Of a DNA stretch of 57,105 nucleotides, positions 40,485-43,289 are shown piece after piece. Where the stretch lies: positions 1 to 57,105 of the forward strand of contig JBEKKX010000016.1 of the NCBI GenBank assembly GCA_050010515.1. Reading direction: 5' to 3'. This DNA is from Candidatus Bathyarchaeia archaeon (lineage in GTDB: Archaea; Thermoproteota; Bathyarchaeia; Bathyarchaeales; Bathycorpusculaceae). Within the stretch, counting starts at the first letter, position 1; each line of letters opens with the position of its first letter. The position numbers and the translations under genes are program-made. The notes beneath the pieces are model-generated. The model was not told the origin of the DNA and did not search any database. It saw only the letters and a program-made list of their open reading frames with translations.

Positions 40485-41039
40485 TTACTCTACTACGTAC
40501 CTGTAAGTAATGTGTACGCCTGCCGTTGTGCTTTTCCTGGTGATTTTCAGTATATCGCCTGGTTTGGCGCCGATTGCTTTAACCGCTGGGTCGCCTGATT
40601 CTATCTGCGGAATCTGGTAGGGCTTAACTCTGTATTGGGCGAGAAGCTGGTTCTTTTCTTTTTCGTTTAGGATTTCGTGGAGGGGAACTAGTGCATGCTC
40701 GAAAATGTCGAAAACTGGGAAAGACTTTGGCAGTAATTCAACTTGTTTCTTCTTTGCGCCAAGTTTAACAGCGTGTGTGTAGCGTCCTTCAGTGACTACT
40801 ATCGCGCGGTCGATTTCTTTTTCTTTCATCACTTTGTAGAGTGTGTTCATGGCTGCTATGCCGACGGTTGCTTCACCTAAAATGCACCAGACGATTGCTT
40901 TCTCTTTATCCTGTGGAATGTCGATGATATAGCTTATTTCGCCATCATATTTTTCTTTTTCAAGCAGTTTGTATTTTCTCAGTTTGATAAGGACTTCTGC
41001 CTTGCGTTCTTCAATTGTTTCTGTTTTAGTGCTCAACAT
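40485..41039 (-). CDS. rpo5: RNA polymerase subunit Rpo5/RpoH with an extra N-terminal Rpb5-jaw-like domain
   Basis: C-terminal ~75 aa are canonical (HALVPLHEIL..IPQIESGDPAVKAIGAKPGDILKITRKSTTAG..YRYVVE), preceded by a ~105-aa alpha/beta domain. Confidence 0.9.
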   Translation of the reverse strand: MLSTKTETIEERKAEVLIKLRKYKLLEKEKYDGEISYIIDIPQDKEKAIVWCILGEATVGIAAMNTLYKVMKEKEIDRAIVVTEGRYTHAVKLGAKKKQVELLPKSFPVFDIFEHALVPLHEILNEKEKNQLLAQYRVKPYQIPQIESGDPAVKAIGAKPGDILKITRKSTTAGVHITYRYVVE

Positions 41040-41115
41040 AAACCCTCAAGATGGGAATACGCGAAACCATAACAAACTATTACCCTTAAACTTTTCCCCT
41101 TAAAAAAGCGCGACG

Positions 41116-41325
41116 CTAAAGAATTTCAGGGTATGGTCTTATCTTTTCTATGGCATCGTTTGCGTTGTTATGTGGAACTGCGAGAATAATGACTTCTCCC
41201 CATTTTGCAGCGTCAGCAACTGGCTCTGCCGGGTCTCTGTGACCAAACTTTGTTTCATGTTTGCTGCTTAAGCCACTGCACAACGCACTGCCAACGTTGC
41301 CTTTTCCTATAATAGCAATTTTCAT
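41116..41325 (-). pseudogene. Truncated F420-dependent NADP oxidoreductase-like gene
   Basis: Only the Rossmann N-terminus (MKIAIIGKGNVGSAL..GEVIILAVP), 69 aa. Confidence 0.7.
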
Positions 41326-41639
41326 AATGTTGACCTCAATTAATGAGCATTGTTCTGAGGCTCATTAGAAGTTGTGACTGCATTGTGCCTACAACAAACG
41401 CTTCGATAACAAACAAAGGGGTCAAGGCTGAAACTTTAGCACTTCAAAAAAATTCGCGCTGCGCCTTTTTCAGCGTTTCATACAATTGGGAATGGCTGGA
41501 TTAAAGGGTAATTGTCCTGATTGTAATTAATACGTTGTTGGCTATGGGAGTTGCTTGCGTCCGATAATACTATGCCTTGGTCGTTGTTTGTAAGTTGTTC
41601 TTTGAAATTTTGTTACTTAAAAAAAGAAGGGGAAAGATT

Positions 41640-43289
41640 TCAGATTTTTAGCCGAAGTAATTTAGATAGCAACGTGTTGAATCGCGCCCCAGTGAATGCT
41701 AACCCAAAATTTCTGGGGAAGTTGTGGTTTGAATGTCGGGTGGGTGTTGGCCTGGTTGTTGGAACTGGTGTTGATGTTGGAGTTGGCGTTTGTGTTGGAG
41801 TCGGTGCCTTTGTCGGTGATGGTGTTGGATGTGCAGTTGACGTAGGGGTTACGACTGGTGTAGGTACTGGCGTAGGCTGCGGGGTCGGTGCAGGCGTCGG
41901 TGTTGGCTTCGCTGTAGGTGTTGGTGTTGGAGTTGGCGTCGCTGTGGGTCTTGGAGTTGGTGTTGGTGTCGCTGTTGGTGTTGGTGTGGGGGTTGTAGTG
42001 ACTCCTGTGTAAGCGTTGATGTATTCTTGTCCCATTGTGTTTGGCGTGTAGCCGCTTGTTAATAATTCTTCGCCGTCGTAAGTTGGGCCTAGTCCGCTGC
42101 TGCTTAACCAGTAGTAAGCTCCTGCGCCGATTCCCAGCGTGTCTTGGGCTTGAAGCAGCGTCTTCCACCAGTTATAATCATTTTTGACGTTGCTTGACGA
42201 TGAAAGACATGAGCCTTCCTCGTTGATTACTAATGGTGCGTTGACTCCCATGGTTTCTTCGAGTAGTTGGAGTGCGTTTTCTATTGATGTGGCGCCTTCA
42301 AACTGTGATGGATTGTTCCAGTAGGATGTTAGGTCGGAGGGTGCGTAGTAGTAGAAGTGTGTGGTGTACACTATGTTTGTTGGGTTAGATAGTGCAGTGT
42401 TTATTTGTGATGCCCAGCTTAGGTTTGAGCCCCAATCGTTGGGTTCCCATCCCTGTTGCCATTGCATCATTATCAGGTTTGTGGATCCTGTTGCCCTGAT
42501 TGCGTTGTACATTGTTGTCAAATAAGTCTTGTAGCCTTGGGGTATCGTGTTGCTGCTGGAGCCTGTGGTTGGTTCGTTCCAGGCTTCAAAGATAACGTTC
42601 GGGTAAGCTTTAAGCGCGTTAGCCATTGATGTCCAGTACTGGGTCCAGAAGTTTTGTTCTGTTAAGCCTGTGCTTGCAATGAAGCTTTTGCCTGCTGAGT
42701 CCCAATTACTCATCATTGGGAGCCCTTGCGCAGTGCTTTGGTCGGGTGTTAGGTAGGGGTCTGAACTGAACGAGCTTGAGCAGGCTGTCAGTTGGTAGGG
42801 TACTATATCTAGGTAGATGCCGTATTGTTCTGCTTCGCTGGCTAGGGTTTCAACGTAGATTTGCACGTTTTCACTGTTTGCGGTGCCGTCTGCACCGTTG
42901 AGCCACCACCATTCTGGGTAGATGAAGACGCGTATCATGTTAACGTTCCAGGTTGTTGATAGTTCCTGGAGCGTTTGGGTTACGGACGTTGACGATGCCG
43001 ATTGCCATTGGTCGCTCCAGCTGTCGCTGCCTCCTTGTCCCCAGAAAATCAGGTCCGGCGTCATTCCAGCTACGCCTATGCCGCGTAGATAGACTGCGTT
43101 GTTGTTTGAGTCAAGTATCTGGTCTCCCGAAGTATGCAGTGCAAGCGTTGTTGTGGCTTGAACTCCGTTTGATGCGAAAACTGTCAGCATGCTTATGACG
43201 AAGATTGCGATGATGCATAGACCCGCTGGTTTTGCGAGCTTCCTGAAGTTTATGGAGTGCAGTATGTTCCCTAAGTTGTTTGTTTTCAT
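41640..43289 (-). CDS. Exported glycoside hydrolase family 5 (cellulase-like) with Pro/Thr linker
   Basis: Signal/TM helix; [24 protein letters not shown] (acid/base), YTTHFY, INEEG (nucleophile). Confidence 0.85.
41740..42005 (-). repeat. Low-complexity (TP)n linker repeats
   Basis: GTTGGT/GTTGGA hexamer repeats encoding [10 protein letters not shown]. Confidence 0.85.

Follow-up and report, generated by a model that had tools for sequence, protein, structure and literature searches.

The stretch of DNA described here (the window) spans 57,105 nucleotides of contig JBEKKX010000016.1 from a Candidatus Bathyarchaeia archaeon (assembly GCA_050010515.1). On its reverse strand, at 40485..41039, it carries an ATG-initiated open reading frame (ORF) of 184 amino acids (aa) that encodes a long form of the RNA polymerase (RNAP) subunit Rpo5, also called RpoH. 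We conclude that this protein is a real archaeal subunit resembling eukaryotic Rpb5 and that it is of interest for how the eukaryotic polymerase arose; its additional N-terminal domain presumably serves as a counterpart of the Rpb5 jaw. An earlier note on this DNA, made from the letters alone, had described an Rpo5 tail of ~75 residues behind an α/β domain of ~105 residues; both the Pfam matches and the AlphaFold2 model agree with this division. The features of the locus are as follows.

40485..41039, reverse strand: the complete gene for the long Rpo5/RpoH, with 184 codons and a stop codon (40485–40487), taken from the ORF list and the sole PF01191 match
40716..41039, reverse strand: N-terminal domain, residues 1–108 (fold core, residues 9–103, at 40731–41015), a predicted Mrr-type PD-(D/E)XK fold, catalytically dead, and the putative counterpart of the Rpb5 jaw
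40488..40712, reverse strand: C-terminal Rpo5/RpoH assembly domain, residues 110–184 (PF01191, NF007129)
41040..41110, reverse strand: non-coding upstream stretch, in which metatranscriptome contigs hint at an mRNA 5' end at 41042/41043

The passages of Sommer et al. (2014; PMC3906176) that concern RpoH describe it without an N-terminal extension and confine the N-terminal domain to eukarya, and a table row in Steczkiewicz et al. (2012; PMC3424549) gives Rpb5_N as 'Eukaryota'. Bathyarchaeota and Asgard Rpo5 were modelled by Shematorova & Shpakovski (2026; PMC13257274), whose passages on them make no mention of a long form. Our search of the literature outside subscription journals and supplements found no publication that describes an N-terminal domain on an archaeal Rpo5.

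The Rpo5 domain and the long gene

Residues 110–182 match the Pfam family RNA_pol_Rpb5_C (PF01191) (98.6 bits, cut-off 23.5, E = 1.8e-28), and residues 110–184 match the NCBIfam rpoH equivalog NF007129 (102.2 bits, cut-off 83, E = 9.7e-30). This C-terminal domain is 59% identical to Rpo5 of Thermococcus and Pyrococcus, retains all of the family-invariant residues and superposes in Foldseek on the Rpo5 structures 9bct_H and 8cro_H over 75 columns with a root-mean-square deviation (r.m.s.d.) of 1.3 Å (TMt 0.91–0.92). Across the classical archaeal Rpo5 proteins of ~80 aa (4qiw_H, 8cro_H and 7ok0_H) the domain is alike, with an r.m.s.d. of 1.3–1.7 Å and TMt of 0.85–0.92; the long form differs from these in adding an N-terminal domain of 105 aa and in being encoded alone, not directly before rpoB.

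The genome, a 2.38 Mb assembly in 66 contigs with 98.5% completeness and 2.15% contamination, contains one match to PF01191, which is the long rpo5 ORF. Its rpoB and rpoA genes were detected by PF04563 and PF00623 and lie on other contigs, in keeping with the earlier observation that the gene has neither as a neighbour: rpoB starts at position 1896 of contig C36 on the reverse strand and rpoA begins contig C25. Although rpoB is truncated at contig ends and its frame is broken once, the usual place of rpoH upstream of it is nonetheless assembled and holds no rpoH; ~400 bp of non-coding sequence is followed by an ORF without a Pfam match. The RpoB domain 6 model (PF00562) found no match in this genome, where the gene is cut at contig ends. 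Within the rpoB segment itself (C36:1–1896), which runs off the contig start, one TGA lies between ~1531 and 1478, and the break in the frame may be an assembly error or real.

As judged from these sequence searches, the long protein is the only Rpo5 of the genome and not an extra paralogue; the search for a second, short rpoH that the earlier note had proposed thus favours the first of its two options, an only subunit over an alternative paralogue. A paralogue with a role outside the polymerase, the true short rpoH lying in the unassembled 1.5% of the genome, could appeal to the imperfect assembly of the operon, with rpoB broken over two contig ends. We regard it as very unlikely in view of the assembled rpoB start and its 400 bp of upstream sequence without rpoH, of the family-invariant residues that the C-terminal domain retains and of the gene positions in related genomes described below.

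In-frame ATG, GTG or TTG codons occur only at codons 1, 2, 64, 70 and 71. Initiation at the last of these, which gives the shortest product, would halve the N-terminal domain, and since none of these triplets follows codon 71 in frame, a product of ~80 aa cannot arise from a canonical internal start; the internal start that the earlier note had named as a contrary outcome is absent. NCBI records do shorten some members of the long family, to 81 or 72 aa (clusters P0154 and P0145: OGD57471.1, MGD0805021.1 and MCX6655802.1), so that, as a practical point, public annotation cuts some long rpo5 genes to 81 aa. Such records speak for a mis-called start in the window as well, with a true product of ~80 aa and an upstream frame that is non-coding or yields a separate product. 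This is scarcely credible, as no start codon lies between codon 71 and the C-terminal domain and the N-terminal frame shows the marks of a translated one. In pairwise comparisons of 80 related loci with the window, the relatives not being independent of one another, codon positions 1, 2 and 3 of the N-terminal domain differ 772, 424 and 3529 times, and the codon differences there are synonymous in 3052 cases (77%) and non-synonymous in 896; the values for the C-terminal domain are 496, 422 and 2506, with 2187 synonymous against 811 non-synonymous. From these counts, purifying selection on the N-terminal domain appears to equal in strength that on the C-terminal domain. Both domains are conserved in a single frame down to 35–47% identity, the N-terminal domain is modelled with a pLDDT of 90, and RNA contigs extend to 41042/41043, all of which tells against a mis-called start.

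Contigs assembled from peat metatranscriptomes in three studies bridge both domains, each as a single piece (40507–41042, 40501–41043 and 40487–41032), and are 92–96% identical to the window gene. With identities of 88–96%, the RNA-library contigs originate in relatives and not in this strain, and the sampled-word shares in the RNA runs are small (0.05–0.16). Two of the contigs, from two studies, end at 41042 and 41043, 3–4 nt before the ATG, and continue into Illumina adapter. This hints at a leaderless or nearly leaderless rpo5 transcript starting 3–4 nt before the ATG, with the proviso that contig ends cannot prove transcript ends and that DNA carry-over in RNA libraries is possible. The cover ends by 41065, and gaps in the flanks are given no evidential weight. 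A scan for sigma-70 promoters and terminators gave two promoter-like sites against 1.9 expected and no terminators, the bacterial model being uninformative for an archaeon.

The N-terminal domain and the Rpb5 jaw

In the whole protein, residues ~21–103 match two Pfam families above their cut-offs, NA-iREase1 (PF22722; 30.8 bits, cut-off 27) and Mrr_cat (PF04471; 30.9 bits, cut-off 21). The domain alone scores 32.5 and 32.7 bits, respectively, and both families are matched above cut-off by all 15 of the N-terminal domains compared. AlphaFold2 modelled the whole protein from a 20-sequence alignment with a pLDDT of 88.4 and a pTM of 0.75, and the N-terminal domain alone with a pLDDT of 90.2. The secondary structure follows the order α(9–20), β(24–31), β(34–41), β(46–53), α(61–73), β(78–83), α(89–97) and β(100–102), and the domain is predicted to be a PD-(D/E)XK nuclease-fold core of the Mrr type. 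Its homology to the Mrr-like superfamily is certain.

In the alignment of the 15 domains only Arg21, Gly60 and Tyr87 are invariant. No acid or lysine column is conserved that could supply the catalytic D...(D/E/Q)xK residues, and the strand at 49–54 has neither; the strand expected to carry (D/E)xK, whose place we take to be given by the fold and not by the hidden Markov model (HMM) alignment, reads VWCIL, IWCIS, MHVLL or VLCTH among members. Lacking conserved catalytic residues, the domain is not an active nuclease. It is basic, with an isoelectric point of 9.10. The Mrr catalytic domain (PF04471; AF1548, 1y88) and NA-iREase1 (PF22722) are its best Pfam matches (~31–33 bits) and AF1548 its best structural match. 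Unlike either, it has no catalytic residues, no Mrr_N DNA-reading domain and no NACHT domain, and it is fused to an RNAP subunit, with Rpb5_C as the partner of the NA-iREase1 region.

The above-cut-off match to Mrr_cat in all 15 members would suit a working Mrr-type endonuclease, or a defence protein, tethered to or borrowed from the polymerase. We hold such a function to be barely tenable: D...(D/E/Q)xK is not conserved, a family described as 'inactive restriction endonuclease' is matched equally well in Pfam, Mrr_N is absent and no defence genes are found among the annotated neighbours. A grouping with active Mrr-type nucleases had been foreseen as another contrary outcome; what was found is a domain that matches Mrr_cat but has no catalytic residues. 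The N-terminal fragment MEM3716633.1 is named 'restriction endonuclease, partial' by NCBI.

Eukaryotic Rpb5 (RPABC1) is a subunit common to polymerases I, II and III. Like the long Rpo5, it consists of a dead PD-(D/E)XK domain followed by a PF01191 domain (1dzf, 7eu0_E, 9mu9_E and 5flm_E). Both the predicted model and the sequence comparisons show a jaw-like two-domain layout of the archaeal protein, in the order of eukaryotic Rpb5. A phmmer search with the whole protein aligned residues 54–183 with residues 72–205 of plant Rpb5 in one stretch containing a single four-residue gap, the interdomain linker being gap-free. When a full-length profile of the family was searched against the Protein Data Bank (PDB), the top match was plant Rpb5 (7eu0_E; 128.8 bits, profile 25–180 against 46–205), with the best archaeal Rpo5 at 122.3 bits and human Rpb5 at 119.6 bits (33–179 against 59–209). 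A profile of the N-terminal domain only gave 17 matches at E ≤ 10 among 177,635 PDB sequences; seven of these, with E from 2.1e-5 to 2.3e-3, are all eukaryotic Rpb5, and no nuclease is present among the matches at that threshold. The HMMER alignment pairs positions 33–92 of this profile with Rpb5 residues ~58–117. The parallel that the earlier note had drawn by eye between EATVGIAAMNTLYKVMKEKEIDRAIVVTEGRYTHAVK and the Rpb5 jaw is borne out by these two alignments, of query 54–183 with 72–205 and of profile 33–92 with 58–117. Its second parallel, between LIKLRKY and the DRGY segment, holds in part: the structural alignment covers the helix, but the sequence score is negative (−2 to −3 bits in the HMMER sub-alignment).

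With the whole model as the query, the top 33 Foldseek matches are Rpb5 chains from eukaryotes and African swine fever virus (E down to 8.6e-16, TMq 0.65–0.78, up to 209 columns), archaeal Rpo5 reaching a TMq of only 0.38–0.39. VIA-align superposed the N-terminal domain alone (model residues 3–108) on plant Rpb5 7eu0_E (chain residues 4–130) with a Z score of 9.2 over 101 residues. The superposition on the jaw that the earlier note had suggested as a check was thus obtained for the domain, and for the whole protein with TM scores of 0.66–0.78 on Rpb5 chains. The long Rpo5 and eukaryotic Rpb5 are collinear over ~150 residues (whole-model TMq 0.66–0.78). They differ in length (184 aa against ~205–215, the eukaryotic jaw having ~25 residues more), and unlike eukaryotic Rpb5 the long Rpo5 is not matched by PF03871, has a C-terminal domain nearest to archaeal Rpo5 and belongs to a lineage with a single archaeal RNAP.

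Distribution and relatives

A search with the whole protein found 1247 matching proteins (E ≤ 0.001), of which the best 120 are 183–215 aa long and 87–98% identical, each carrying PF01191 together with PF22722 and/or PF04471. A search of contigs found 210 stretches that encode a relative, and 72 of the best 80 are titled Bathyarchaeota, Bathyarchaeia or Bathycorpusculum, the remaining eight bearing other or unspecific archaeal labels. With the N-terminal domain as the query, phmmer found 38 matches at E ≤ 0.001 among 1.84 billion cluster representatives, either short fragments or proteins of ~176–220 aa, and none of the 38 was a Mrr protein of typical length or an identifiable eukaryotic Rpb5.

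Among 401 genomes of the phylum, the N-terminal domain is present in all 46 genomes of the same order and in two of the 13 genomes of the class that fall in other orders; elsewhere there are weak matches in long ORFs and one paralogue of 214 aa (genome G081). This paralogue belongs to a family of proteins of ~180–215 aa (L119–L125, in genomes G081, G324, G294, G155, G264, G141 and G210) in which a dead Mrr-like N-terminal domain (E 1e-10 to 1e-16 with the N-terminal-domain HMM) is joined to a Cys-rich C-terminal domain of ~90 aa, Pfam recognizing only Mrr_cat and NA-iREase1. The genome studied here has no paralogue of this type.

PF01191 is matched in 282 of 301 genomes of the class. The assignment of families to a long or a short form rests on ~150 listed PF01191 rows: frames of at least 180 aa occur in families f1–f6, f62, f12, f13, f66, f67, f75, f76 and part of f69, and frames of 75–136 aa in f7–f11, f63, f65, f70, f73, f74, f77, f79–f81, most of f14 and part of f69. 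A 180-aa frame in f14 (L224) has no N-terminal domain, and family f68, which lies outside these rows, has the long form in all five genomes tested.

Form and gene position go together. Among 45 Bathyarchaeia loci examined, L116 and L117 included, rpoB lies downstream in none of the 18 with a match to the N-terminal-domain HMM (32–122 bits), and the rpoB start lies within −69 to +29 nt in 24 of the 27 without one; of the other three short loci, a contig end truncates one, whereas two, in f69, stand alone and have a K/E-rich tail. The long form thus accompanies loss of the operon position. No sampled genome was seen to hold both the long form and an operon-borne short form, and this, with the absence of rpoB downstream of all 18 long-form loci of other families, speaks against the long protein being a paralogue outside the polymerase.

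The two stand-alone short rpoH genes of f69 (L230 and L231, in G407 and G458) lie away from rpoB and carry the K/E-rich tail at their N-terminus; in other f69 genomes the long form is present but diverged (L217 scores 32 bits), and the short genes look like secondary losses of the N-terminal domain. Some Bathyarchaeia genomes carry the long rpoH two or three times, in frames of 179–200 aa: G450 (on contigs C50, C45 and C39) and G053 (C48 and C58). These copies may provide alternative forms of the polymerase.

One Bathyarchaeia N-terminal domain matches the protein P0158 by phmmer with E = 5.6e-4 in the 1.84 billion proteins. P0158 gave 62 matches, of which ~40 are clusters of 170–190 aa with PF01191 and PF04471, the two-domain layout of the long Rpo5. 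This family includes records that are named by NCBI as Candidatus Hodarchaeota, Candidatus Hermodarchaeia and Promethearchaeota, and it is on these record names that the Asgard assignment rests. The family is distinct and tight (mean column identity 78%), and the Bathyarchaeia long forms are 38–47% identical to P0158 itself. In hhalign, 14 N-terminal domains of the Bathyarchaeia type, P0158 being left out, aligned with ten Asgard ones at a probability of 98.3% (E = 1.7e-14, 92 columns). As judged from this profile comparison, the N-terminal domains of the Bathyarchaeia and Asgard-labelled long Rpo5 are homologous.

Giant viruses (Nucleocytoviricota), whose hosts are eukaryotes, also encode two-domain Rpb5 homologues, of 178–230 aa, some of which align with the family profile along almost all of it (profile positions 10–180 for L139 and 4–180 for L150). 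Their similarity in the N-terminal domain is weak (≤ 22 bits) and the best identity is 34%. Among 1353 ORFs from giant-virus loci, the N-terminal-domain HMM scored best with L181 (22 bits) and L172 (19.8 bits), the only two of ten scanned virus proteins above the Pfam Rpb5_N cut-off. An ESM Atlas cluster of 52 proteins combines PF01191 with Mrr_cat (90%) and is mostly of Nucleocytoviricota, judging from its three members of known phylum. In the giant-virus clusters of that atlas PF03871 (18%) stands beside Mrr_cat (17%), so the two Pfam models overlap on Rpb5 N-terminal domains.

Origin, possible role and neighbouring genes

We consider it probable that the Bathyarchaeia protein is a sole, long Rpo5 of Rpb5 type in which a dead-nuclease domain serves as the jaw, and that eukaryotes received this architecture from archaea, where it had arisen. 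Given the homology to the Asgard-labelled long form, an archaeal origin of the two-domain Rpb5 architecture, with inheritance by eukaryotes, is the most likely one. A single fusion event common to the archaeal and eukaryotic forms is likely but not proven. The more detailed course of events, in which the jaw half was born in archaea when a dead Mrr-type domain joined Rpo5, displaced the operon rpoH, came to mark Bathyarchaeia and Asgard archaea and was passed to eukaryotes, is one that we only narrowly prefer.

A number of results weigh against common descent with the eukaryotic jaw. In structural comparisons with the N-terminal domain alone, nucleases equal or surpass Rpb5: VIA-align gives Z scores of 10.2 for AF1548 and 9.7 for NucS against 9.2 for Rpb5, with AspBHI and Can2 at 8.5, and EndoMS comes first in Foldseek. 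The AlphaFold arrangement of the two domains may be partly remembered from Rpb5 structures in the training set. The Pfam model of the jaw, RNA_pol_Rpb5_N (PF03871), matches none of the 15 N-terminal domains, is not listed for the protein at E ≤ 10 and has no match in its genome. Of the two Pfam models between which the earlier note had wished to choose, therefore, Mrr_cat matched and RNA_pol_Rpb5_N did not, in part because the latter spans Rpb5 residues ~1–90 and the shared similarity lies at 58–117. A search of the PDB with the single N-terminal domain sequence had no significant match, the best being a fatty-acid-binding protein (E = 0.24), with Rpb5 at E = 0.28; an Asgard-only N-terminal profile had no match there at E ≤ 10; and giant-virus jaws score at most 22 bits. 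The N-terminal profile scores Mrr-like long ORFs of Thermoproteota at 20–27 bits and Rpb5 jaws at 21–28 bits, and with the domain at a nearly equal distance from both, fold and score alone are no proof of a common fusion. In some Bathyarchaeia the paralogue that bears the domain on a different C-terminal domain offers a local source for an independent fusion. A tree of RpoB fragments (43 rows) scatters the long forms over at least five places, and the approximately unbiased (AU) test gives p = 0.049 for a single clade of long C-terminal domains; the starred branches of this tree and of the C-domain tree (75 rows, 76 columns) allow one or two changes. Finally, the place of the protein in the polymerase or near DNA is a prediction.

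Three virus rows that join the long forms in the trees have long branches and were treated as an artefact.

Several of these results would suit a convergent fusion, in which archaea joined a local dead Mrr-like domain to Rpo5 independently of eukaryotic Rpb5: the equal bit scores of Mrr-like nucleases and jaws, the fold searches that tie nucleases with Rpb5, the paralogue with the same domain on an unrelated Cys-rich one and the failure of the Asgard profile alone to reach Rpb5. The retention of a short operon rpoH in many Bathyarchaeia families also fits a derived long form. The protein could then still work like a jaw, without being ancestral to the eukaryotic one, and the Asgard form would have come by descent or transfer. 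We think such convergence unlikely. Under it, the same domain family would have been placed at the N-terminus twice, each time with catalysis lost and without a gap in the linker, and the long form is present in proteins labelled Asgard. Moreover, the PDB contains the Mrr-type nucleases AF1548, MspJI, AspBHI and LlaBIII, yet the N-terminal profile matches only Rpb5.

The archaeal jaw-containing Rpb5 proposed by the earlier note is thereby supported, none of its three contrary outcomes (an active nuclease, a failure to superpose on the jaw, an internal start) having occurred, and a jaw role of the N-terminal domain, membership of the polymerase and a place by the downstream DNA are what we infer from homology. 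The pairing of the Rpo5 C-terminal domain with Rpo1 is textbook knowledge. By homology with polymerase II, this domain would attach the subunit to Rpo1 at the lower jaw, and the basic N-terminal domain would project along the downstream-DNA channel, where, like the Rpb5 jaw, it could touch DNA and/or provide a surface on which factors dock. Within Bathyarchaeia, the short rpoH at the head of the rpoB operon would have given way to the long gene.

An archaeal origin of the long form, spread across a large class and Asgard-labelled proteins, would move the origin of a polymerase module to before eukaryogenesis. Natural archaeal polymerases occur with the jaw and without it in sister families, so that what the jaw adds to DNA handling and factor binding can be judged by comparing them, and the Bathyarchaeia polymerases offer a testable system for jaw function.

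The genes around the long rpo5 have no link to transcription. They are a ModE-like gene with a helix–turn–helix and a TOBE domain, a 69-aa F420_oxidored fragment, a GH5 cellulase and an ornithine cyclodeaminase. The 69-aa ORF (41116–41325, reverse strand) lies directly upstream of rpoH, matches the F420-dependent NADP oxidoreductase model over no more than its first ~33 positions and may be a gene remnant. The GH5 cellulase (41640–43289, reverse strand) begins with a signal-like N-terminal segment and ends in a long tail rich in Pro and Thr, and a spurious Gly/Val-rich ORF at 41551–42012 lies on the strand opposite to it.

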